Of a stretch of DNA of 64,000 nt, positions 2,549 to 59,068 are shown piece by piece. This stretch comes from Dehalococcoidia bacterium (GTDB lineage Bacteria; Chloroflexota; Dehalococcoidia; Lucifugimonadales; G958296245): positions 3,348,347 through 3,412,346 of the forward strand of contig CBDHEI010000002.1 of the NCBI GenBank assembly GCA_965262055.1. The letters are read 5' to 3'. A program made the translations under genes and the position numbers. Position 1 is the stretch's first letter. Every line of letters begins with the position of its first letter. A model generated the notes under the pieces. The model was not told the origin of the DNA. It ran no database searches and saw only the letters and a program-made list of their open reading frames with translations.

Positions 2549-4555
2549 TTATTCCTCCCTGACGTCCCACTGCTCGATGTGGTAGAACCAGTTGGCGTTC
2601 CACATCATGATCGGCATGATGTCGATCTCCCTAAGCGAACTCGGCTGGGGACGGTTGCCGAAGCCCGGTACGAAGACCTTGCTGGCATAGGTAAACAGGC
2701 GGGCCCCCGACCAGAGCGGGGCCACGGGCAGGTCCCTTACCAGCATCTCGTTTATCGCCTTACCGATCTCCTCCATCTCGCTGGTCGACAGCGCCTTCGG
2801 GCCGCGGTCGAATAGCGCGTCCATCTCGGGGGTGGTATAGCCGTGGGGGTCCGGGCCGGTCGAGTCGTAGTAGTACCTGCTGTTCAGCACACTTCCACCC
2901 CAGCCGCCGCCGCGTGTCACTTCGACGCCGCCTTCCTCCTTGGTCCGCGGGTTCGTGTACCACCTCTCTGTGGATACCGCTCCCTCGTACTCTACGTACT
3001 CGGTCTTAAAGCCCGCCTCCGCTAGCATCTGCTGCTCGACGGCATACTGGGCCCTCCGGGCCGGGTCCGAGACGACGCCAATCGACACCTCGACTACACG
3101 GTCGAAGTCCCAGTCGGCCTCCTCCAAGAGCATCCTGGCGGCCTTCGGGTCGAACGGGTAGAGGGCGTCCATCTCCATGGTGTGCGAGCCGGGAGGTAGA
3201 TGAAGAGTCGAGTTGTAGATGTTCCCAAGGCCGTTTGCATACGTGTCCACCAGCTTCCGGCGGTCGATGGCCATCAGCCACGCTTGGCGGACCCGCCTGT
3301 CCTGCAGCCACGGGTTGCGAAGGTTGAATCCGTACCCTGCGTTTGTCATCTGGGCCGCAACCGCGGCCACGACGAACCGCGGGTCCTGGATGAACGCCTT
3401 GTACCCCTCTATCGAGAGGCCTCCACGCCTGCTGACGTCGATCTCGCCTCGTTGCATGGCGATCTGGGTCGAGTCCGGCGAGGGGATGACGTGCATGAAG
3501 ACACGGTCGATTTTCGGCCTTCCGAAGTAGTAGTCGGGGTTTGCTTCGAACTCCAGGAAATTATCGGGCTGGTGCTGTACGAACGTGTACGGCCCCGATC
3601 CCATCATGCCGTCGACGAAGAACTTGTCCTCGTCGATCATGTTCATCGGCAGCTCGCCCAGGACGTGTTTGGGCAGGACAGGCTTGAGGTATAGGGCATT
3701 GAGGAACACGCCCGTGGGAAACTCCATGTCGAACTTGATGGTGTGATCGTCGATCACGGTAATGCCGGTGGCAGCGTCTGCCTCACCGTCTATGACAGCC
3801 CCCGCCCCCTTTACCATCTCGAGGGACTTGGGGACCCTCACTAGGGACTCGGGGTTGATGTACGTCTGGAAGGTGAACTCCACGTCATGGGCGGTTACCG
3901 GTGTTCCGTCGTGCCAGGTGGCGTTCTTCCTCAGGAAGAAGGTGTAGGAATCGCCGCTCGGGCTGATCTCCCACCTCTCCGGCAGGTCCGGAATGTACTC
4001 GTAGTTATGCGGGTCGGCGAATACCATGTGCGAGAACACGTAGTTCCCAACAGCGCTCACAGCCCCGCTGACCGCCGTGTACGGCGCGAACTTGAGGACC
4101 ATGGAGGACATCCTCAGGTTGATGACCTCCTCTTCCGGCCCCTTAGGCACCTCGACTACGATCTCCTTGACCACCTCCACCTCTTTTATGACTTCCTTCT
4201 CCACGACGACCGTCTCGCCGGGGACCATCACTTCCTTGACCACCTCTTTCTCCACCACCACCTCTACCTCAACCTCCTTGACCACCTCCTTCTCCACGAC
4301 GACCGTCTCGCCGGGGACCATTACTTCCTTGACGACCTCTTTCTCCACGACGATCGTCTCACCGGGGATCATTACTTCCTTGACGACCTCCTTCTCCACG
4401 ACGATCGTCTCACCGGGGATCATTACTTCCTTGACGACCTCCTTCTCCACCACCACCTCTACCTGTACTTCCTTCACCACCTCCTTCGTGCACGCCAAGG
4501 AGGCCACCACAACTAGGGCTGCGACCACTGCGAACAGAACTCTCAGGCTATTCAT
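2549..4555 (-). CDS. ABC transporter substrate-binding lipoprotein, family 5 (peptide/nickel), with long repetitive N-terminal tether
   Basis: 668-aa ORF. Signal peptide plus lipobox (VASLAC), then EKEVVKEV repeats, then an SBP_bac_5-like body. It heads a same-strand SBP-permease-permease unit. GGGAGGAG Shine-Dalgarno lies upstream of the ATG. Confidence 0.9.
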   Translation of the reverse strand: MNSLRVLFAVVAALVVVASLACTKEVVKEVQVEVVVEKEVVKEVMIPGETIVVEKEVVKEVMIPGETIVVEKEVVKEVMVPGETVVVEKEVVKEVEVEVVVEKEVVKEVMVPGETVVVEKEVIKEVEVVKEIVVEVPKGPEEEVINLRMSSMVLKFAPYTAVSGAVSAVGNYVFSHMVFADPHNYEYIPDLPERWEISPSGDSYTFFLRKNATWHDGTPVTAHDVEFTFQTYINPESLVRVPKSLEMVKGAGAVIDGEADAATGITVIDDHTIKFDMEFPTGVFLNALYLKPVLPKHVLGELPMNMIDEDKFFVDGMMGSGPYTFVQHQPDNFLEFEANPDYYFGRPKIDRVFMHVIPSPDSTQIAMQRGEIDVSRRGGLSIEGYKAFIQDPRFVVAAVAAQMTNAGYGFNLRNPWLQDRRVRQAWLMAIDRRKLVDTYANGLGNIYNSTLHLPPGSHTMEMDALYPFDPKAARMLLEEADWDFDRVVEVSIGVVSDPARRAQYAVEQQMLAEAGFKTEYVEYEGAVSTERWYTNPRTKEEGGVEVTRGGGWGGSVLNSRYYYDSTGPDPHGYTTPEMDALFDRGPKALSTSEMEEIGKAINEMLVRDLPVAPLWSGARLFTYASKVFVPGFGNRPQPSSLREIDIMPIMMWNANWFYHIEQWDVREE
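4123..4486 (-). repeat. In-frame tandem repeat (51-bp unit, 17 aa EKEVVKEVMIPGETIVV) encoding a Glu/Val/Lys-rich tether
   Basis: Near-identical 51-bp units are visible, e.g. 4321-4371 vs 4372-4422. Protein residues ~24-145 are built of VVEKEVVKEV(M[IV]PGET[IV]) units. Confidence 0.85.
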
Positions 4556-6576: not shown

Positions 6577-7530
6577 TCACGTCAGTCGAACGCGCGGGTC
6601 GGCGTAGGCGTACAACACATCGGCCAGCAGGTTCGCCCCAAGCACCAGGACGGCGATGATGACCGCCAGCCCCATCAGGACCGTGTAGTCACGCATGAAG
6701 GTTGCCTGGATTCCCAGCTGGCCCATTCCCGGCCATGCGAACATATACTCGATGAGGAAGGCGCCACCAAATAGGAAAGGAAGCCGCAGAGTAGTGATGG
6801 TGATCAGCGGCAGCAGCGCGTTCTTGAAGGCGTGTCTGCCGATCACCGAAAACTCGGACAGCCCCTTGGCCCTGGCAGTAGTCACGTAGTCCGACTTCAT
6901 CACTTCCAGCATCGCTGTGCGGGCGTAGCGGGTATTACTCGCCATCGAATCGATCGCGAGCACGGTCGCGGGCAGTATGAGGTGGTGAAGATTGTCGAGT
7001 GCCGAGTAGTCGGTACCATAGGTGGTCATGCCGAAGGAGGGAAAGACGGGCAACAGGGCCGCGAAGACGTAGAGCGCCAGCAGCGCGAAGAAGAATGTAG
7101 GGATCGAAAGGCCGACCAGGGCGGCCACGCTAAGCACATAGTCGTAGATGCTGTACTGTCGCAGGGCGGCAATGACTCCGAATACAGTGCCCGACACCAC
7201 GGACAGCACCAGGGCAACAGAAGTCAGCTCCAGCGTCGGCAGCACTCGTGCCCTGATAATCTTTAGCACCGGCTGGCCTGACTGGTACGAATAGCCGAAG
7301 TTGCCCGTTGCAAGCTCTCGGAGCCAAATCACGTACCGGACCGCTACGGGCTTATGGAGCCCCAACCGTTCGAGCTGTTTAGGATTGGCTCTGCCCAGGG
7401 TCAGCTGAGGGTCCGCCATGGCGGATACGGGGTCTCCCGGCGCCAGGTTTATGAACGCATAGGTCATCATGGTGATGCCTATCAGCATAGGAATAGCGAT
7501 AAGCAGGCGCCGCGCAATGTACGTTTGCAT
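6577..7530 (-). CDS. ABC transporter permease, peptide/nickel type (DppB/OppB-like), paralog 2
   Basis: 317-aa ORF, colinear with 1373..2332 (MQTYIARRLLIAIP...YAYADPRVR). Confidence 0.9.
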   Translation of the reverse strand: MQTYIARRLLIAIPMLIGITMMTYAFINLAPGDPVSAMADPQLTLGRANPKQLERLGLHKPVAVRYVIWLRELATGNFGYSYQSGQPVLKIIRARVLPTLELTSVALVLSVVSGTVFGVIAALRQYSIYDYVLSVAALVGLSIPTFFFALLALYVFAALLPVFPSFGMTTYGTDYSALDNLHHLILPATVLAIDSMASNTRYARTAMLEVMKSDYVTTARAKGLSEFSVIGRHAFKNALLPLITITTLRLPFLFGGAFLIEYMFAWPGMGQLGIQATFMRDYTVLMGLAVIIAVLVLGANLLADVLYAYADPRVRLT

Positions 7531-8965: not shown

Positions 8966-10831
8966 CTAGTCCCTTATGTCCCACTGCTCGACGTGGTACT
9001 GCCAGTTGTCGTCGCGTCCCACGTGGACCGGGTAAACCTTGATTTGGGAAAGCTGTAACGGCTTCGGGATCTCTCCGAAATGCGGCATGTAGAAACGCGT
9101 GTTCTTAACCTTGACCCCGGCGCCGGTGTGCAGACCCACCCAGGGAAGGTCCTTGTGGAAGAAATCTTCGACGATCTGCTGCCAGATCATCGCGGCCTCT
9201 TCCCGATCGGTTGCCGAAGCCCCCTTGTTGGTCAGTCCCGCCAAGTCAGCGTTGTAGTAGTAGAACTCACCCTCCTCGATCGGCCTGTTGACGTGTGAGA
9301 GCCACCCGGTCGGGCTGCCGAACGTCCCCCAGCCTGAGTACAGCACCTCAGTCTCGTGGGTGTCGTACCACTTGTTCTGTCCGGCCGCGCCCGGTTCTGT
9401 GTCGTACTCTATCTTGATACCCACGTCCCCAAGCATCTGCTGCATGATCGCAAGACGCGCTCGCCCCTCTTCGTCCCTCGGAGCCCCTGCCTGCACCGTG
9501 ACTACCTGGTTGGGGTCCCAGTTCATCTCCGCGAGCAGCGCTCTCGACTTGTCGGGGTCGTACGGGAACGCATCGTCCCATTCCGACTTCTGGTACCAGC
9601 TGTGTACCAGGGGACTGTTTATTACACTTCCCAGTCCATTCAGGAACTTGTCCAGCAGCAGCTGCCGGTCGAGGGCGTGTACCCAGGCCTGCCGCAGACG
9701 TACGTCCTTCAGATGGTCGTGCCGCTGGTTAAAGCCGAATCCCACCGCGACGGTGCCCGCTGTCGCGTAGACGTCGAACCGGGGGTCCAGGAGCATCGAT
9801 TGCGCGGCGTCGTTCGTGACCCCGCCGCGCACGGTCACGTCAATCTCTCCTCGCTGCATGGCGATCTGGGTCGCGTCTGCCGATGGGATGACGGCCAGGA
9901 TGAGGCGGTCTATCTTCGGCCTCCCGAAGTAGTACTCATCGTTAGCCTCCATCTCCATGTACTGGTCCGGGACCCACTCGACGAACTTGAAAGGTCCACC
10001 GCCCATGAAGCCGCTCGACCAGAAATCGTGCTCGAGGAGCTGGTCGTCCGGTATGTCCTTCAGAATGTGCGCGGGGAGGACCGGCGGCGGCGCCAAGCCA
10101 CAGAGGGCATTGAGCGTGTCCAGGAAGGACACCGTAGGAGTCGACATGTCGAGCGAGAATGTGTTGTCATCTATGACGGTAAAGCCGGATATCTCCTCGG
10201 CAGTGCCTTCGAGGAACTCTTTGGCCCCAGCTACGTCATTGAACATCGCGTGCATCCACCACCCTGCCTCTGGGAGGAGGTACGACTCGAAGGATGCCTT
10301 GACGTCCTCGGCGATAATCGGCATTCCGTCGTTCCACACCGCGTTCTTGCGAAGGTAGAAGGTCCATTTGCTGCCATCGGGGGCGACGTCCCACCTCTCG
10401 GCCAGGTCCGGGACCCACCTCCCGATCGTCGGGTCCGGCTGCGCCAGGCGTGGGAACATGTACCCCATGACCTGCACCACTGCCCCGCTGCCCGTCGTAT
10501 GCGGCGGGAAGCTGGGCGGCATGCTGGACATGCGGATGTTCAAGACCTTCTCCTCGTCGCGCTCAACCTCGACTATCCTCACCACCTCCTTCTCCACCTC
10601 GACTACCTTGACTACCTCTTTCTCCACCACCCTCTCCACCGGCACCTCGACCGTCTTGACCACCTCTTTCTCCACGACGACTGTCTCACCGGGGACCATT
10701 ACTTCCTTGACCACCTCCTTCTCCACCACCACCTCTACCGGTACCTCCTTCACCACCTCTCTGGTACATGCCCAAGAGGCGAGCAGAAGCAGAGCCACAA
10801 CCACTGCGAACAAAGCTCTCATCCTATTCAT
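8966..10831 (-). CDS. ABC transporter substrate-binding lipoprotein, family 5, paralog 2
   Basis: 621-aa ORF. Signal peptide and lipobox (LASWAC), EKEVVKEV-type tether, SBP_bac_5-like body colinear with 2549..4555. Confidence 0.9.
   Translation of the reverse strand: MNRMRALFAVVVALLLLASWACTREVVKEVPVEVVVEKEVVKEVMVPGETVVVEKEVVKTVEVPVERVVEKEVVKVVEVEKEVVRIVEVERDEEKVLNIRMSSMPPSFPPHTTGSGAVVQVMGYMFPRLAQPDPTIGRWVPDLAERWDVAPDGSKWTFYLRKNAVWNDGMPIIAEDVKASFESYLLPEAGWWMHAMFNDVAGAKEFLEGTAEEISGFTVIDDNTFSLDMSTPTVSFLDTLNALCGLAPPPVLPAHILKDIPDDQLLEHDFWSSGFMGGGPFKFVEWVPDQYMEMEANDEYYFGRPKIDRLILAVIPSADATQIAMQRGEIDVTVRGGVTNDAAQSMLLDPRFDVYATAGTVAVGFGFNQRHDHLKDVRLRQAWVHALDRQLLLDKFLNGLGSVINSPLVHSWYQKSEWDDAFPYDPDKSRALLAEMNWDPNQVVTVQAGAPRDEEGRARLAIMQQMLGDVGIKIEYDTEPGAAGQNKWYDTHETEVLYSGWGTFGSPTGWLSHVNRPIEEGEFYYYNADLAGLTNKGASATDREEAAMIWQQIVEDFFHKDLPWVGLHTGAGVKVKNTRFYMPHFGEIPKPLQLSQIKVYPVHVGRDDNWQYHVEQWDIRD
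10549..10762 (-). repeat. In-frame Glu/Val/Lys-rich repeat tether of SBP paralog 2
   Basis: Protein residues ~24-95 read VVKEVPVEVVVEKEVVKEVMVPGETVVVEKEVVKTVEVPVERVVEKEVVKVVEVEKEVVRIVEVE. Confidence 0.8.
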
Positions 10832-11145: not shown

Positions 11146-12850
11146 CCCGAATCCACCGAAGGACACCGATGGACGGCGTGAGGACAGCGGCAGGGTGGGT
11201 GAGGGAGCTACAGGGGAGATGGCTGGGCTCATTGGGGTAGATTGGAGGTCGGCGAACGGTCTTCAGTCGCCGCCTTGCGCCCCTATGGCCCTCTGCGGGA
11301 GCTGCGATGCGCGGGATGGCGAGAGAATACGCAGCAGGGAACTCTCGCGGGACCGGGGTGGCACGAGTTTTCAGGGAAGTTGGGTCAGTTGCAGGCTGGC
11401 AGTTCAGGCGGGGAGTGGAATGGCTCGCAGCCGGGCCATGGCGCGAGTGAACTGGGTTTCCCAAGTCCAATGCTGGGGAAGATGCAGGGTAAGGCGGCGC
11501 GCCGAGCGGGTGATCCGTCCCACCAGAGCGAAGACCCGCCGCCTGAGGGTCTTGGTGGTCACGGTCCGTTCGGCCAGACCGATGCGCGCTGTCCAGCGGG
11601 CGAGGTTGTGTGCCATCACCTGCACCGCCAGCCAGGCGCCGTTGGCGGCGAAGCGCCCCGAGGGGAGATGGTTGAGTCCGACGCCGTGTTTCAGGTCTCG
11701 AATGGCGTTCTCGATCTCGGCGTGGCGGCGATGATCGGCCTCCAGTTCCAGGGTTTCCCCGTCCCGGTCGGTGATGAAGCCGTGATAGCTGTAGGTGGCG
11801 AAGAGGGCCAACTGGGAACCGGGCGTGGGCTTCACCCGCCGGACGATGAGCCGCACCGGCGCGGCGTCGGGTTCACTCTGGAAGGGGGTATAGGTGGTCT
11901 CGGCCACATCGGCGGCGCCGTCCATCCAGTAGGGAATCGGCGTCCAGTCCTGCTCGGGGATCGCCTCAATCAACTCCCGCAGGCCTTTGTGCTGGCGGAT
12001 GGTGATGGAGAAGCGGACACTCATCTCGCGGCAGACGGCGACGAGAGCGTGGGCGTAGAAGCCGCTGTCGGCGCGCACCGTGAGTTGGCCGCTGGCCCTA
12101 CCGTAGCGCACCCGCCCCACCGTTTCACGCAGGAAGTGGGCAGCGCCGCGAGCGGTGTTGGCACGGCCCTCGCGCAGCCGGGACATCAGCACATCGCCGG
12201 TTCCGGCGGCGATGGCCAGCAGTGGGTGATAGCCCCGCACGCCGGTGTAGTTGTGGTGTCGCGCCCCTTCTTTGTCCAGTCCATAGGTCTCGCAGATGGT
12301 GGAGTCCAGGTCGATGGTAAGGGGCGAGTCGCCGGGTCCGGCCCCAGCGGCCCATGCGCGTGCCAGCAACTGGCGGCTCACCCGGTCGAGTTGACGGACA
12401 TGCCCCCACCGGAAGCTGCGCAGGAAGGTGCCCAGGGTGGATGGCGCCTTGACCACGCAGCCGAGAACACCGACCGTCCCACCAGCACGCAGCGCATCGG
12501 CGTCGTCGATGAAGTCGCCGCCCGCCAGCGCGGAAGCGACCAGCGTCAGCAGTTTGTCCCCCGTGTTCGCCCGCCCCGATGCGCAGCCTAGGTCGAGGTG
12601 ATGGTCGACGAGTTCCCGCAGGCCCAGGTGCTGTGCAAGGGTGGCCGGCAGGAGCAGGCCGGCATTGGCCACCAGGCGGTGGTCGTCAAAGACGACGCCG
12701 ATACGGTCGGGATTGTTCTGTGGCAGCATCTACTGGGTGCTCCTTGTTTCCGGGCGGTTTTCTGTTTCAAAACCATTCTCCCAGATTCAGAGGAGCACCC
12801 TCTGGCTTCTTCAAGGACTGTCCCCAAAGTCGTCTTTCGGTGGATTCGGG
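11146..12850 (-). mobile_element. IS1380-family insertion sequence, apparently intact (1705 bp)
   Basis: Terminal inverted repeats: cccgaatccaccgaaggac (11146-11164) against the reverse complement of gtctttcggtggattcggg (12832-12850), 18/19 match. Flanking 5-bp direct repeat TTTAG at 11141-11145 and 12851-12855. A single transposase ORF lies inside. Confidence 0.85.
11404..12729 (-). CDS. IS1380-family (DDE) transposase
   Basis: 441-aa ORF. The N-terminus ...VVFDDHRLVANAGLLLPATLAQHLGLRELVD and overall length are typical of IS1380-family transposases. The overlapping plus-strand 449-aa ORF is judged spurious. Confidence 0.9.
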   Translation of the reverse strand: MLPQNNPDRIGVVFDDHRLVANAGLLLPATLAQHLGLRELVDHHLDLGCASGRANTGDKLLTLVASALAGGDFIDDADALRAGGTVGVLGCVVKAPSTLGTFLRSFRWGHVRQLDRVSRQLLARAWAAGAGPGDSPLTIDLDSTICETYGLDKEGARHHNYTGVRGYHPLLAIAAGTGDVLMSRLREGRANTARGAAHFLRETVGRVRYGRASGQLTVRADSGFYAHALVAVCREMSVRFSITIRQHKGLRELIEAIPEQDWTPIPYWMDGAADVAETTYTPFQSEPDAAPVRLIVRRVKPTPGSQLALFATYSYHGFITDRDGETLELEADHRRHAEIENAIRDLKHGVGLNHLPSGRFAANGAWLAVQVMAHNLARWTARIGLAERTVTTKTLRRRVFALVGRITRSARRLTLHLPQHWTWETQFTRAMARLRAIPLPA

Positions 12851-12988
12851 TTTAGGCAGGGGCCCTGGGGGCTCTGCCCCAGCTTCCAAAGGGCGGGCGG
12901 GTGGGGATCAAGACATCTGTCTTATAGGGGATTATGCCAGTGGAGAAGACACCAGCAAGTCTGAACAGCTACGGGATGACAGTCGCCA

Positions 12989-13018
12989 TTGACACCTAGG
13001 GAACGTATGTGCTAGCCT
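12989..13018 (+). promoter_or_regulatory. Promoter-like box TTGACA-N18-TAGCCT (start of composite element A)
   Basis: TTGACA at 12989-12994 and TAGCCT at 13013-13018. The block gaa.gt.tgtgcTA...Tctc..tgt resembles the strong promoter at 22803-22831. A second TTGACC-N18-TAGCCT lies at 13440-13469, just upstream of guaA. Confidence 0.3.
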
Positions 13019-13232
13019 CTCCTGTACAGGTGTCCCCTGCTGGACACCCCCAAAGACCGAGGAGACCACATGACGAGAGCGCTGACGACACGGGCCGGCC
13101 CCCGGCGGGCCCTCCCTCCTCCTCATCCCCACGCCGTAGGGGCGGGTTTCAAACCCGCCTTCCCTGTGGCTTGTGGCCTAGAGACGTCCCCGCCCGCCCC
13201 GCGAAGAGCCTGTCCTGAGCTTGCCGAAGGAG

Positions 13233-13356
13233 TGTCTCATTCTGTCTCGTTAATATCTCATTCCGCCTCGCTGGTTTCTCATTCTGCCTCGCTCGTGCCA
13301 CCCACTGTCTCGCATGCCAAAGCTGAATGAGACACAATGTGACAGAATGAGACACA
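13233..13356. repeat. Opposed arrays of helically phased short repeats (element A): 6 x [TC]CTC-type units, then 3 x G[AT]GACA units
   Basis: Left-arm units start at 13233, 13243, 13254, 13264, 13275 and 13285 (10-11 bp spacing). This includes the 15-mer TCTCATTC[TC]G[TC]CTCG three times at a 21-bp period (13235, 13256, 13277). Right arm: GAGACA/GTGACA/GAGACA at 13329, 13339, 13349. tgtctcattc (13233) is the inverted copy of gaatgagaca (13325, 13345). Confidence 0.6.
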
Positions 13357-22802: not shown

Positions 22803-22831
22803 TTGACCATTGCGAATGTTTGTGCTATGAT
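22803..22831 (+). promoter_or_regulatory. Strong sigma70-type promoter with extended -10 (TTGACC-N17-TGcTATGAT), start of composite element B
   Basis: TTGACC at 22803-22808, a 17-nt spacer, TG at 22823-22824, and TATGAT at 22826-22831. No ORF follows for ~340 nt. Confidence 0.5.
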
Positions 22832-22953
22832 CTCTCTGTGGCAGAGGGATGGCCCGCGCGGCGGTCCCGTCTTCTCCCTTAGCGACTTCCCATCGAACGG
22901 GAGAGGATGGGGAGATGCCCCCGTACTCGATACGGGTGAGGTCCCCAGCCAGC

Positions 22954-23063
22954 GTGTCACTTTCTATCACATTCGGTCACTTTCGAGTCCCGTTCCGCCA
23001 CATCGGCGTCACCTCACTGTAACGTGGCCCATAGCTAAAGGTGACAGAACGTGACAAAACGTT
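22954..23063. repeat. Opposed arrays of phased TGTCAC/GTGACA-type units (element B)
   Basis: gTGTCACtttc, TATCACattc and GGTCACtttc have TCAC at 22957, 22967 and 22977 (10-bp period). cGTCAC and cTCAC lie at 23008-23017. Then GTGACAgaac and GTGACAaaac at 23041 and 23051. Confidence 0.6.
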
Positions 23064-23110: not shown

Positions 23111-23139
23111 TTGTCTCGCCGAAGGCCATTGATTATAAT
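23111..23139 (+). promoter_or_regulatory. Candidate proximal promoter of ilvE (TTGTCT-N17-TATAAT)
   Basis: TTGTCT at 23111-23116, a 17-nt spacer, and consensus TATAAT at 23134-23139. The ilvE ATG is at 23176, with AGGAGG at 23165-23170. Confidence 0.5.
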
Positions 23140-37321: not shown

Positions 37322-37640
37322 GGTGGATACCCTTCTTCCCGCCCCTAGACATGGGGCCGTGTTTTAGGCTGCAAGGCGGCCCAAGCGCCTCCGGCAAGAG
37401 GCGTACATTATATCCCAGATTGGCTGCGGGGATGCTCTACGAAGGCGGAGCTGCGGGCAATCGCGCAAAGCAGTGTCGAATTGAGGGGCGGTCGCGGAAT
37501 TGTGGAGCTACCTTGTAGGCTACAGGCAATTGGCCCGGCTGATGGGACGGTCAGAGATGCTCGATCCGGGCGCCGCTCGGCTCGATGGCTGCCTACGGTG
37601 CGACCCTGGCTTGTCGATCGGGATGAATTTCCCGATATCC

Positions 37641-37765
37641 GTAACGTTTTGTCACATTTTGTCACATTCAGCTATGGGTCATGCGACAGTGGGGCGACAC
37701 GAATACGACAATACCGTGACTAATTGAGACACCGATGCGACACAATGAGACAGGATGTGACACGC
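37641..37765. repeat. Opposed arrays of phased TGTCAC / [GC]GACA units (element C, best example)
   Basis: ttTGTCACatt occurs twice (37650, 37660). Eight units containing GACA/GACT follow at 37685, 37696, 37707, 37718, 37728, 37739, 37749 and 37759 (spacings 11,11,11,10,11,10,10). Hairpin ATCGGGA-tgaatt-TCCCGAT at 37617-37636 lies immediately upstream. Confidence 0.65.
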
Positions 37766-37840
37766 CCCTCAGCAAGTTGAAGGCTAGCATTCCGAGTCTC
37801 CCACCCAGCAGGGCGGTAACCGAAGCGGGCCAGACGTGAG

Positions 37841-37869
37841 TTGATCCTTCCATGGGAAAAGCATAGTAC
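37841..37869 (+). promoter_or_regulatory. Candidate promoter of hydrolase gene (TTGATC-N17-TAGTAC)
   Basis: TTGATC at 37841-37846, a 17-nt spacer, and TAGTAC at 37864-37869. Confidence 0.3.
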
Positions 37870-37944
37870 ACGTGTTCGCTTCTTGTCAAGCAACTACTGA
37901 GATCCAGGTGAATGGCTGTAACAGGCCGTAAATGGAGGTATTCG

Positions 37945-38919
37945 ATGGACATGGCAATTCCCAAACACGTACGCCCGGCGTATCCCGCGCCGGTTGAGCG
38001 AGGTCAGGTGCGCGAGAAGATGATGGAGCTCCTGGGGCTGGAAGAGGTCCCAGAGACGGCTGACTTCACCGTGGCGTCCGTGAAGACCGAAGACGGGCTG
38101 GTGGTGACGCGAGGGTCGTTCCGCACCTACCTGGGCGAGGATGTCCCCACCATCATGATGACGCCCACAGGGGCATCCGGGCGCCCGAGGGCCGGCGTGG
38201 TCTGCGTGCCCGGCACCGGAGGGAGCGCAGAGATGCTGGCGCACGAGAGGCTGCACGTGCGCGAGGAGGGACGCCTGTTCGGATGGGGCCGCGAGCTGGC
38301 CAGACGCGGGTTCGCGACCATAGCCATCACGCCGAAGGGCACCGAGGCGCGCAGAGGATCGGAGGAGGCGTGGGCGCACGAGATGAAGCTGCTGGCCCCC
38401 TACGGACGCTCGCAGATGGGCGTTCTGGTCGAGGAGACGCTGCTCGCCGCCCGTATCCTGGCGGACGCCGAGGGAGTGGACGCGGGTAGGATCGCTCTCA
38501 CCGGCATGTCGCTGGGCGGCAATGCGTCCTGGTACGCGATTGCATGCGCGCCGTGGATAGCCGCCGCCGCGCCCGTCTGCGGCGGGTTGGGCCGCATGGA
38601 GCGGGTAATCCACGAAGGCCAGAACGAACGGCACAGCGCCTACTACTTCGTCCCGCACATGCTGCGCCACTTCGACCATCCAGAGGTCGTAGCGGCGTGC
38701 ATCGCCCCGCGCCCGCTCTTCATGGTCGCGCCCACCGAAGACGAGGACATGCCGCGCTCGGGGGTGGACGACCTGATTCCAGTGGTGCGCGCCGCCTACG
38801 AGGAGATGCACAAACCTGAGAACTTCACGGTGTACCAGCCGGAGGGACGCCACGTCTATCGGGTCGGGTATCTGGAGCGGGTGGCAGCCTGGCTCCGATG
38901 GGCCCTGGGAGAGAAATAG
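37945..38919 (+). CDS. Alpha/beta hydrolase (dienelactone hydrolase / acetyl-esterase-like)
   Basis: Nucleophile elbow GMSLGG. I chose the start MDMAIPKH at 37945 because GGAGG lies 6 nt upstream; the ORF track starts at 37912. Confidence 0.75.
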   Translation: MDMAIPKHVRPAYPAPVERGQVREKMMELLGLEEVPETADFTVASVKTEDGLVVTRGSFRTYLGEDVPTIMMTPTGASGRPRAGVVCVPGTGGSAEMLAHERLHVREEGRLFGWGRELARRGFATIAITPKGTEARRGSEEAWAHEMKLLAPYGRSQMGVLVEETLLAARILADAEGVDAGRIALTGMSLGGNASWYAIACAPWIAAAAPVCGGLGRMERVIHEGQNERHSAYYFVPHMLRHFDHPEVVAACIAPRPLFMVAPTEDEDMPRSGVDDLIPVVRAAYEEMHKPENFTVYQPEGRHVYRVGYLERVAAWLRWALGEK

Positions 38920-56741: not shown

Positions 56742-59068
56742 TCACGGGGCACGGTCAACTGACCAGACCGTAAAATTCTCGAATCTGGTGGATTTGCCTG
56801 CAATGCCGTGGCCTCTGAAGTAGCTGCCCACGGCGTCCACACTCCCGGATTTGAGCCAGCCGCTCAAGTCAAGCCTGCCCACGTAGGTCCCGTTTACGAA
56901 CAGCCTGCCATCACCGCCTAAAGCGATGATCCTCAAGTGGTTACTGCCGCCCGGGCCGGTGGCCAGCAGGTGCCTGGAATCCCGCTCCGCCAACTGCTCT
57001 TCGGACCCGGAACCGGTGCGCAGACGGTGGAACCACCTGCCGGATTCGTCTATGCCGAGGGCGTGAAAGTCGCCGCTACCGCTCCTTCTAATGAGGAGCC
57101 ACTGGTCCAGTCGCCCTCCGACGCGGAGAACGGGTTGTGGAAGGTAGCTTCGACAATTCCGTCCGCCATAGAAGTGAAGGTCTCTTCCACCTCGATGAGG
57201 CCATTGTCGGGGTTGTGCTCAATGGCTCCGCTACTTGGGCCGTGGATTTTGCTCAGCGATCGTACGGTGAAGCCGGAGAAGCGAATTGACCGGGCGCCCG
57301 TCTGGCCTCCCCTGAACAAAGCTCCTATCAATGCAACCGAGCCTGACTCTACTAGGCCACTCAATTCCAGGCTGCTTTCGTAGGCGCCGTTGACGAATAG
57401 CCATCCTATGTCGTCCACAGCGACCACTCGGAGGTGGTTCTGTGCGCCGATGCCTGTCCTGATGTTGGATGATGAGGCCGCTTCAATCAGCTGATATTCT
57501 CCAGATTCACCGCTTCTCAGGTAGTGGCGCCAGACTCCTGATCTATGTATGAGCAGTACGTGGAGGCTGTCGTGGTCGCCAATCCGAAGCAGGAACCCTG
57601 TACTCCAGGCGCTTCCGGTCAAGTCATGAGGGACGGTGAAGGTCGCCTCGACCACGAAGTCGGAGGCGCTCGTGCGGCTATCGAAGGTCGATGCGAACCC
57701 GTCTTCTGGACCATGGTCTATGACGCCTTTGAGTGGGCCGAAGGCATCCGATGTCGTAGCTGGCATCTCCGAGGGCATGCTGTCGGACGCTGACGTTGGA
57801 GTCGAAGTGGCGGACGCACCCGCCCACATGGTCAAGGAGCTGAACGCCAGCGAATCTGACCTTATTGCGAAGCCGATTCCTTGAGCGTCGAAGCTCCTGC
57901 CCGGTATCGTTCGCAACGCTGACGTATTCATGCCGACGACTTCGCCAGCGAGATTCAAGAGCGGGCCGCCGCTATTGCCCGGATTGATCGCCGCGTCAGT
58001 CTGGACATAGGTGACCACCCGAGACACCCGGAAGGCTGAGATTATGCCCGTCGTCACGGTGATTCCGTCCCGCAAGTGGAGCGGATATCCCAACGCCACC
58101 ACCCCCTCCCCCTCGCGCATCCGCGTAGCGAGGGGGAGCGCGGTCAGGGGCAGTTCCGCCTCAACTTTCAACAGCGCAATGTCCCGCTTGGAATCGAACC
58201 CGATCACTCGCGGCGTCGATGTGGCGCCATCGTCGAATATAACGGTCAGCTCATCCTCGCCGGCGATTACATGCGCGTTCGTCAGGATGTGGCCAGCAGG
58301 ATCTATGACGAACCCCGATCCGGCGCCGGTCTTGCCCTGGATACGCACTATGCCCTCCCTAACCTTCTCCACTATGTCTGCGAGGGATGGGGGCGGCACG
58401 GGCGTGGGCGAAGGGGTATTCGTAGGCGTAGGCGTGCTGGTGGGTGTTGGCGTAGGCGTGGGCGTGCTGATGGGTGTTGGCGTAGGCGTGGGCGTGGGCG
58501 TGGGTGTGCTGGTGGGTGTTGGCGTAGGCGTGGGCGTGGGCGTGGGTGTGCTGGTGGGTGTGGGCGTAGGTGTGGGCGTGGGTGTGCTGGTAGGCGTAGG
58601 CGTGGGCGTGGGCGTGCTCGCCGGAATGGGAGTAGGCGTACTGGTGGGCGTGGGCATAGGTGTGCTGGTAGGCGTAGGCGTGGGCGTGCTCGCCGGAATG
58701 GGAGTAGGCGTACTGGTGGGCGTGGGCATAGGTGTGTTGGTCGGTGTGGGTGTAGGTGTGACGGTCGGGGTTGGTGTCGGTGTGCTAGTACGCGTGGCTG
58801 TTGGTGTGGCTGTGGGTGTGGGCGTAGGTGTGGACGTCACGGTCGGGGTTAGAGCCAACGCCTCCAAAGTCGCCTGCACCCCGGCCACAATTGCTGCCTC
58901 TACGTCAATGGCCGAAACCCGCTCAGCGACCGCCTTATCGACGGCCGCCTGCACGAGCGATTCCACGTCGGGAGTGGGCTCAGGCCCTGAGCCTCCGGAG
59001 CAAGAGACCGTGAAGAGCAGCACAACGACAGCCACTATGAGGCGCACAGTGGAGTTGAGCCTACGCAT
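56742..59068 (-). pseudogene. Secreted S1C (HtrA/DegP-like, PDZ-less) serine protease lipoprotein with PT linker and two LamG/jelly-roll-like C-terminal repeats; the second repeat is split by a frameshift
   Basis: ORF 57050..59068 has lipobox TVSC, a PT-rich linker, and a trypsin-like core (TNAHV, DIALLKV, GNSGGPL). Repeat 2 begins ...EGDWTSG and then stops. The continuation ([26 protein letters not shown]...NHLRIIALGGDGRLFVNGTY...FENFTVWS) lies in another frame down to 56742, and parallels repeat 1 ([11 protein letters not shown]...[20 protein letters not shown]...FSGFTVRS). A 1-nt loss near 57094-57100 explains the split. Confidence 0.75.
58385..58849 (-). repeat. Low-complexity Pro/Thr-rich linker-coding repeat (~155 aa of TPTP/STPTP units)
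   Basis: The plus strand shows ggcgtgggcgt(a/g)ggtgtg-type periodic sequence, with longer duplicated blocks such as ctcgccggaatgggagtaggcgtactggtgggcgtgggcataggtgtg occurring twice. Confidence 0.85.

Follow-up and report, generated by a model that had tools for sequence, protein, structure and literature searches.

Helically phased repeat arrays in a Dehalococcoidia genome as putative dispersed copies of the 5' region of a gene for a small-terminase-like protein

Repeat elements of the window

The stretch of DNA analysed here, termed the window, is a 64,000-nucleotide (64-kb) segment from the genome of a Dehalococcoidia bacterium (contig CBDHEI010000002.1), and it contains three related intergenic repeat elements, designated A, B, and C. 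Element A faces guaA, element B faces ilvE, and element C faces a minus-strand DUF7700/HpcH-aldolase/oxidase operon rather than the plus-strand hydrolase gene on its other side. Comparisons with other genomes suggest that all three are dispersed copies of the promoter and operator-like region of a chromosomal gene that encodes a helix-turn-helix (HTH) protein resembling the small terminase subunits (TerS) of phages.

The array of element C consists of GACA units (one of them GACT) that start at positions 37685, 37696, 37707, 37718, 37728, 37739, 37749, and 37759, with a mean spacing of 10.6 bp in this long arm and of 10 bp in the opposed short arm, whose two TGTCAC units lie at 37650 and 37660. 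These ten positions are exactly those given in a preliminary description of the element, which also correctly recorded a hairpin with a 7-bp stem at 37617-37636. Tandem Repeats Finder detected arrays of period 10 and 20/21 at A, B, and C. A chain of eight GAC[AT] units with steps of 10-11 bp occurs only once in the window, while the longest such chain in 60 simulated first-order Markov sequences of 64 kb each had two to three units; the repeats are thus real and far beyond chance expectation.

The limits and the polarity of element C had to be revised. It had been placed at 37481-37765 and read as a promoter-like box followed by a hairpin and then by the repeats, an order that is wrong for an element located on the other strand. 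The sole sigma-70-like site within the intergenic region 37322-37945 is on the minus strand (37889 to 37860), and therefore the box proposed near 37481 is unsupported. Element C in fact runs along the minus strand from about 37889 to 37640, which takes it past 37765 and leaves 37481-37616 outside. The hairpin at 37617-37636 lacks a U/T run, nothing corresponding to it is present in A or B, and it is uncertain whether it belongs to the element. The two sibling sites proposed at 12989-13356 and 22803-23063 proved to be real and homologous to C, but the accompanying statement that all three elements face a plus-strand gene did not hold, as C is inverted.

Elements A, B, and C can be aligned over about 125 bp only when C is reverse-complemented, and in this alignment (A1) they are about 65% identical to one another. 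Element A extends approximately from 12989 to 13355 and element B from 22803 to 23056; the cassette, composed of promoter, leader, and repeat array, amounts to about 250 bp. On its own strand each element begins with a conserved sigma-70-type promoter (TTGACA-N5-GAACAnnnGTRC-TATnnT), followed by a variable leader, seven or eight reverse units, a conserved centre (CACTGTCnCG...CCCATAGCTGAAT), and two or three forward units (Table 1). The units of the long arm are of the TGTC(A/T)C type and those of the short arm read G(A/T)GACA, with GTGACA the main class among the window units. The common promoter, located upstream on the same strand, has the form TTGAC(A/C)-N5-G(C)GAAC-N4-GT(G/A)C-TAT(G/A)(C/A)T, and the same type is found in A, B, and C, in the copies from other genomes described below, and at the native HTH genes. 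The -10 hexamer of A is weak, and this promoter was not called by a strict promoter scan. In A the long arm (13233-13316) is a 21-bp dimer present in four copies at exactly 21 bp, and the inverted arms, 20 nt in length, are 90% complementary. The leader of C gave a weak nhmmer alignment to positions 19-78 of model A4. Near ilvE, the -35 hexamer of a second, gene-proximal promoter lies within a further TGTCTC unit, which may be bound.

Table 1. Coordinates of the features of elements A, B, and C and of the partner reading frames of the HTH genes
Feature	Position	Strand	Description
A promoter-like box	12989-13024	+	TTGACA..GGAACGTATGTGC TAGCCT; motif match
A array	13233-13355	+	8 reverse units, centre AAAGCTGAAT, 3 forward units GAGACA/GTGACA/GAGACA (13329-13354)
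B promoter	22803-22831	+	TTGACC-17-TATGAT, preceded by TG (extended -10)
B array	22955-23056	+	about 7 reverse units (22955-23023), centre CCCATAGCTAAAG, forward GTGACA units at 23041 and 23051
Second, gene-proximal ilvE promoter	23111-23139	+	TTGTCT-17-TATAAT, 55 bp past element B
C promoter	37860-37889	-	TTGACA, 18-nt spacer containing GCGAACACGTGTAC, TATGCT; 10/12 matches
C leader	37767-37859	-	between promoter and array; degenerate remnant of native 5' hairpin GGGACAGACC..GGTCTGTCTC
C long arm	37685-37766	-	8 units, 10-11 bp apart; TGTC(A/T/G)C on minus strand, GACA on plus strand
C conserved centre	37666-37684	-	minus strand ...GCATGACCCATAGCTGAAT; invariant block in A/B/C alignment
C short arm	37647-37665	-	two forward units, minus strand AATGTGACAAAATGTGACAAAAC; homologous to HTH-gene start-codon region
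Hairpin beyond C short arm	37617-37636		ATCGGGA-N6-TCCCGAT, 7-bp stem
Partner open reading frame	L143 5447-5722; L146 3068-3373; L153 2897-3310; L154 458-751; L155 512-793; L156 1014-1361

Copies in other genomes and their source

A degenerate 24-nt pattern that combines the centre with the short arm, and for which about one match would be expected by chance in 596 Gb, was found at six sites in the Dehalococcoidia metagenome-assembled genome (MAG) CBDEFX01 and at one site in the MAG CBDCXW01. The presence of copies in two Dehalococcoidia MAGs favours the earlier suggestion of a dispersed, lineage-specific family. The CBDCXW01 copy is of the window type, whereas five of those in CBDEFX01 (L004, L005, L007, L008, and L009) represent a compact version of about 180 bp (X-type) and are mutually very similar. 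The compact copies comprise the same promoter, the 5' inverted repeat GGGACAGACC..GGTCTGTCTC, two reverse units, AGCTGAA, and three or four AATGAGACA units, after which CTTTTT is found. The sixth copy (L006) shares the promoter type and the forward units and has a differing leader, a single reverse unit, and no 5' hairpin. Overall, the five to six CBDEFX copies are much more alike than the three window copies. They precede unrelated genes, among them a MutS2-like open reading frame (ORF) and the genes for a 2-hydroxyacid dehydrogenase, glycyl-tRNA synthetase (glyQS), and PrmA. Nine of the ten dispersed copies are co-oriented with the next gene, and the orientation of the element relative to its promoter is fixed in all of them.

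Part of a 1.49-Mb metagenome contig in the ENA matches the window with 98.7% identity. Among metagenomes, a first search pattern (AGCTRAAN...) gave no match, and a looser three-unit pattern recovered 120 stretches; since most of these are unrelated tandem repeats, the three-unit pattern is not diagnostic by itself. Several of the GC-rich matches, however, had the array placed directly at the start of a small ORF, an ORF with matches to Pfam PF13022 and to several of the PHROG 'terminase small subunit' families.

The DNA of such native genes was read for ten loci. In nine of them the ATG falls within an array of three units that repeat every 10 nt exactly, the exception being L151, where the array is degenerate. 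For example, the array-embedded start ATGAGACAgAATGAGACA encodes MRQNET, and GAGACAgaATGAGACAaaatGAGACA is translated as M-R-Q-N-E-T. The three forward units extend over the ribosome-binding region and, beyond the ATG, over codons 2-6. Between the promoter and the forward array, native genes carry one or two reverse units and the 5' inverted repeat, although members of the GGCACA class (L141 and L153) have the three forward units and neither reverse units nor the 5' hairpin. The regions upstream of P0007, P0028, and P0022 constitute the compact cassette, from the -35 hexamer to about codon 8 (alignment A4 for P0007 and P0028), and the X-type copies of CBDEFX01 align base for base with the first two over this whole extent. 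The CTTTTT found after the CBDEFX copies corresponds to codons 7-8 (L-F) of the source gene, and the native gene in L155 (P0022) even has the CCATAGCTGA centre in its upstream region.

A hidden Markov model (HMM) of the cassette was built from the native regions and the CBDEFX copies only, with no window sequence included, and it retrieved element A with E = 1.9e-10, element C (minus strand) with E = 8e-8, and element B with E = 0.009. That a model constructed independently of the window finds all three elements indicates that they are copies of the promoter, the leader, and the start of the gene; at the level of sequence comparison, the homology of the window elements to the 5' region of the HTH gene is thereby shown. 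The start codon inherited from the source gene can be recognized as ATG directly followed by TGA in A (13337-13342) and C (37661-37656, minus strand), where it forms a minimal start-stop ORF, and as ACG in B, from which it follows that the coding capacity of the window copies has been lost. No remnant of the HTH coding sequence or of its partner gene (see below) was present in the window or at the CBDEFX loci.

The same homology disposes of two candidate functions. A leader peptide was rejected, for the window copies do not preserve mini-ORFs of the MRHNETE type, and their conservation elsewhere is explained by homology to the start of the HTH gene. An intrinsic terminator formed by the arms and a T-run was likewise rejected, as the window copies have no T-run and the CTTTTT of the others represents codons of the source gene.

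Two further small repeats were seen near cassettes or native genes. A perfect hairpin resembling repetitive extragenic palindromic elements (GGCGGGTTT-C-AAACCCGCC) occupies 13141-13159, between the promoter and the array of A; a similar hairpin upstream of the copy in L005 suggests that a second small repeat family exists in these genomes. In L150 (about 2080-2260) the 5' hairpin module (GGACAGACCCcacGGTCGGTCCATTTCTGT...) occurs three times in tandem upstream of P0096, whose start-codon array is degenerate.

The HTH protein and its partner

The HTH family, which occurs in the Chloroflexota, comprises more than 220 clusters of proteins of 129-147 aa (about 135 aa), almost all of them unnamed and many encoded on contigs of 1-5 Mb; one cluster is labelled Chloroflexi. 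The gene is a stand-alone chromosomal gene situated among housekeeping genes such as rsfS, ndk, tsaD/E, recJ, and dapA, and 11 look-ups covering 9 different family proteins revealed no large terminase, portal, capsid, or virion gene nearby. A partner ORF of about 95 aa always comes after it, and the stop codon of the HTH gene often overlaps the start codon of this ORF, which is characterized by the motifs R-x-L-E-R-K-L...N-Y-L-E-x-C (LRALERKLV.ERAE...NYLE.C) and matched nothing in Pfam or PHROG. In L151 the HTH gene and a LexA_DNA_bind gene are divergently arranged. An insertion sequence (11164-12900) with a 441-aa DDE_Tnp_1_4 transposase (ORF 11404-12729, minus strand) lies directly upstream of element A; a copy with 86% identity is located a few kb from the HTH-family gene in L143, and the same transposase family adjoins an HTH-family gene in L146.

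PHROG small-terminase families match the HTH protein at 1e-6 to 1e-10. In an AlphaFold (AF2) model of the monomer, with a mean confidence score (pLDDT) of 83.8, residues 17-50 form a three-helix HTH, after which come two long helices. Its best structural match in the PDB is 2AO9, a protein of phage phBC6A51 (probability 0.99, template modelling (TM) score 0.35-0.46); the matched chains are lettered B to I, so that the entry holds at least nine chains. Among the top matches in BFVD are proteins named as small terminases and others of the 'homeodomain phBC6A51-type' (best E = 3e-5, TM score 0.54). A sequence search of the PDB yielded only a HEAT-repeat-like similarity. Taken together, the profile matches and the predicted model give reasonable support for a TerS-like fold, and by analogy with TerS the protein may assemble into a ring.

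Co-variation of the units with the recognition helix

The placement of the array over the first codons allows the units to be compared with the protein that they help to encode. Within the family N-terminus M-x-Q-N-x-T, the conserved residues Q (CAR), N (AAY), and T (ACN) encode the conserved positions of the array, and the variable codons 2 and 5 carry the variable bases of the units. Units of the GAGACA class encode MRQNET or MKQNET and are accompanied by A as residue x of the helix motif R-x-T-L-Y-R-W; those of the GGAACA/GGGACA class encode MEQNGT and go with T (or S) at this residue; and those of the GGCACA/GTCACA class encode MAQNGT or MSQNV and go with R or K. The units change in concert within a lineage, and the non-coding unit 1 was of the same class as the others in every locus examined.

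Among 92 proteins, the combinations E-A and G-T were counted 24 and 35 times, respectively, against 4 discordant cases each of E-T and G-A. When a neighbour-joining tree was derived from the remainder of the protein, the G-to-E and the T-to-A change coincided on eight separate branches, as compared with about three co-occurrences of any kind expected by chance, a figure that is our own rough estimate. Nothing at the level of the protein requires codons 2 and 5 to switch together with the helix residue, and binding of the protein to the array at its own 5' end would explain it. The pattern is therefore suggestive of an operator sequence that co-varies with the DNA-reading residue, and it suggests that the HTH protein binds its own array. 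It is the chief argument, if an indirect one, for autoregulation at the level of DNA.

Proposed function and competing explanations

We assign a probability of roughly 55% to the reading that the window elements are dispersed promoter-operator copies of the TerS-like HTH gene and putative sites for the protein that it encodes, and we infer that this protein would bind as an oligomer and may affect the genes downstream. In the SPP1 phage the pac site consists of direct repeats that span promoters and the start of the terS gene, the HTH domains of the TerS ring are one turn of B-DNA apart, and about 100 bp of DNA are thought to wrap around the ring (PMC4737164). By analogy, the HTH protein would bind the helically phased units on double-stranded DNA as an oligomer, with one HTH per helical turn and successive units read on one face of the DNA, and would in this way autoregulate. 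In the native gene the array sits past the promoter and extends over the ribosome-binding region as well as the start codon, a position from which bound protein could repress the gene either as a roadblock or through wrapping close to the promoter. Placed ahead of guaA, ilvE, and the DUF7700 operon, the copies may bring the same promoter and operator to these genes or may serve as extra sites or sinks. In the window the reverse arm would have grown by 21-bp duplications to seven or eight units (about 84 bp), and an arm of eight units would amount to about one circumference of a TerS-like ring. In general terms, then, the earlier impression that the arrays look like helically phased protein-binding sites is upheld.

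Several observations weigh against this interpretation. The HTH gene and its partner were not found in the window or in L001, and no HTH-family cluster was found on the 1,493,619-bp metagenome contig that matches the window. No regulator was matched to the GTGACA class, the predominant one in the window. A promoter-like site of its own precedes ilvE, and likewise each of the other downstream genes, and the distance between array and gene varies from 115 to 327 bp, which makes a regulatory effect uncertain. The cyclic symmetry of a ring accounts for direct repeats and not for the two or three inverted units; these reverse units are complementary to the AUG region, and an RNA mechanism would fit much of the same data. 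Finally, the structural similarity scores are modest (TM 0.35-0.54), and the count of co-variation events depends on a neighbour-joining tree of a short protein and is noisy.

The most serious competitor, though in our judgement an unlikely one, is that the element functions as an RNA leader, in which the reverse units (UGUCUCAUU) pair with the AUG-containing forward units (AAUGAGACA) and occlude translation; the 5' hairpin (GGGACAGACC/GGUCUGUCUC) would compete for the same strand and act as a switch, and the dispersed copies would be structured leaders or small RNAs. The arms are indeed 84-90% complementary over 19-20 nt, and the folds of A, B, and one X-type copy are more stable than those of shuffled sequences (z = -2.8 to -3.6), but the fold of C is no better than its shuffles (z = -0.4). 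In classes A and T, the U/C of the anti-unit matches the A/G of the forward unit while still pairing with G in the 5' hairpin, yet inverted copies of one protein site would yield the same apparent co-variation. The constant orientation of the element with respect to its promoter would also suit a transcribed leader. What speaks for recognition as DNA is the strict period of 10 nt (21 nt for the dimer), a signature of the helix face that RNA pairing does not need, and the absence of reverse units and 5' hairpin in the GGCACA-class loci L141 and L153, where the three forward units are nonetheless kept. Moreover, no Rfam family was matched: with Rfam 15 at the gathering score there were no matches in the window and only a tRNA in 15 related loci, and a tRNA scan of the window detected none.

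It is improbable, more so than an RNA leader, that the cassette was copied by some mobile or duplication process and that the window copies are now decaying relics without useful binding or regulation. Such decay would account for the loss of coding capacity, the poor -10 hexamer of A, the low mutual identity of the window copies, and the promoters that the downstream genes have of their own. Prokaryotes commonly reuse promoters as repeated sequence, and putative mobile promoters have been described in which unrelated genes of one genome are preceded by highly similar sequences that include a promoter (PMC3575422). The cassette differs from these in that its source gene can be identified and in that each copy adds an operator-like array and first codons. 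As opposed to what erosion would leave, the unit cores, the 10-11 bp phase, the centre, and the promoter motif have been kept in all three window copies despite about 35% divergence, the reverse arm has been expanded in an ordered 21-bp register, and nine of ten copies are co-oriented with the downstream gene.

Very improbable is the notion that the TerS-like protein belongs to the packaging machine of a prophage, gene transfer agent, or satellite, and that the arrays are pac-like sites at which packaging of host DNA is initiated. Sequence and fold of the protein are TerS-like, and the way in which arrays extend across the promoter into the start of the terS-like gene parallels the layout of the SPP1 pac site; with the SPP1/SF6 pac site and its G1P protein they have in common an N-terminal HTH with oligomerisation helices and direct repeats across promoter and gene start (PMC4737164). 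This likeness is limited to the native HTH genes, as the window copies lack the gene. Furthermore, the HTH gene is chromosomal and stood among housekeeping genes in every context read, with no packaging, large terminase, or other phage genes nearby, and its constant neighbour is the 95-aa protein without a family match. The units also differ from those at pac in that they are sharp 6-mers, recur strictly every 10 bp, and co-vary with the protein, and in that the cassette has been copied to other loci.

The preliminary description had compared the arrays with the sites of OmpR/PhoB-type response regulators, with arm-type sites, and with miniature inverted-repeat transposable elements (MITEs), and none of these comparisons survived closer inspection. 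The E. coli pho box reads CTGTCATA(A/T)A(A/T)CTGTCA, and TGTCAC-ATTT-TGTCAC resembles it, with a TGTCA-type core, a 4-bp spacer rich in A/T, and repeats arranged head to tail at 10-11 bp, about one helical turn. A pho-box-like array is all the same even less probable than pac-like sites, because 96-210 bp separate the conserved promoter from the arrays downstream of it, which do not replace the -35 hexamer (a single stray TGTCTC coincides with the ilvE-proximal one), the arms are opposed, the unit number differs, the neighbours (guaA, ilvE, the DUF7700 operon, glyQS, prmA, and mutS2) form no phosphate or envelope regulon, no such regulator was identified, and the array is part of the coding start of another DNA-binding protein that co-varies with it and is the likely binder.

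A MITE was rejected since there is no target-site duplication at the ends of the array or of the cassette; the flank CCAACCCCG is common to several CBDEFX copies and is thus not such a duplication. The inverted arms begin with TGT...ACA, but the conserved unit runs on to the promoter, 100-330 bp away, and the repeated unit starts exactly at the -35 hexamer and includes the promoter.

Arrays of arm-type sites were also rejected, as there is no tyrosine integrase and no att/tRNA junction near A, B, or C. The P2 Cox, 186 Apl, and lambda Xis proteins are small HTH or winged-helix proteins that occupy five to eight direct repeats of about 10.5 bp, often overlapping promoters, and form a bent filament. 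Their arrays, in contrast to the window elements, are found at phage switch regions and at attP beside the integrase, and the fold match of the HTH protein is to TerS and not to Xis. The parC site bound by ParR of plasmid R1, the centromeres of pSK41, and the MraZ boxes offer another parallel, with about ten repeats of 10-11 bp (or 20-bp dimers) that lie beside or across the promoter of the operon encoding their binder and are bound cooperatively by an oligomer; their binders are ribbon-helix-helix or AbrB-like proteins, and neither a partition ATPase nor a dcw cluster accompanies the cassette.

Returning to the promoter-operator reading, the spacer of the promoter in all cassette copies contains GAACA-N3-GT(A/G/T)C (for example 37877-37866 on the minus strand and 13001-13012), which resembles the LexA (Cheo) box of Gram-positive bacteria, and in L006 and L035 it is a perfect Cheo/LexA-type box, GAAC-N4-GTTC. 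From this resemblance the cassette may be under SOS-type control; literature searches brought up nothing useful on GAGACA repeats in Dehalococcoidia or on a LexA motif of Dehalococcoides. A bolder version of the promoter-operator reading, which as a whole we consider unlikely, is that the TerS fold has been domesticated in the Chloroflexota as a DNA-wrapping regulator, whose ring would read about ten phased 6-mers, co-evolving with the array in its own first codons, and whose regulon would have grown by copying of the cassette to sites ahead of housekeeping genes, perhaps under SOS control.

Novelty and significance

Autoregulated factors with phased arrays, small terminases that read repeats at their own gene, and the reuse of promoters (PMC3575422) are already known. 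No description was found of the combination of a chromosomal TerS-like HTH family, an operator in the first codons that co-varies with the recognition helix, and dispersal of the cassette, and the HTH family is unannotated in the databases searched. If the promoter-operator reading is correct, a large unannotated family of terminase-derived DNA-binding proteins (the more than 220 clusters noted above, all of which are labelled 'hypothetical') would gain recognition sites in a phylum rich in uncultured members, and the family would provide a rare case in which the co-evolution of operator and recognition helix is visible from sequence, with the operator embedded in the coding start of its regulator. 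Duplication of a regulator's own promoter-operator cassette would then be a concrete route for the expansion of a regulon. The reading would also yield testable predictions (A44 or T44 with GAGACA or GGAACA units, respectively) on how ring-shaped HTH assemblies read phased DNA, a question that is open for small terminases.

Additional observations

In the viral collection there was one distant TerS relative without arrays, together with three array matches in unrelated contexts. One IMG/VR contig (L133, about 6900-7060) carries three GTGACA/GAGACA units and two inverted TGTC units, which directly adjoin the end of a tyrosine-integrase gene and a 3' fragment of a tRNA. It is the only array seen in a context like that of arm-type sites; it has the same 10-bp unit and is apparently unrelated to the cassette. 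Near-identical arrays of the form GAGACAnaayGAGACAgaatGAGACACTTTT occur on GC-rich metagenome contigs with unrelated flanks and without an HTH ORF (L012, L015/L131, L055, L056, L072, L102, L103, L118, and L121). One of them adjoins a PEP-CTERM gene, and L015 has two such arrays 185 bp apart. Within the window, long tandem repeats also lie inside coding regions at 4173-4487, 10562-10757, and 58421-58833, with periods of 51/93, 30/48, and 6/24/78 nt, respectively, indicating repeat-rich proteins.

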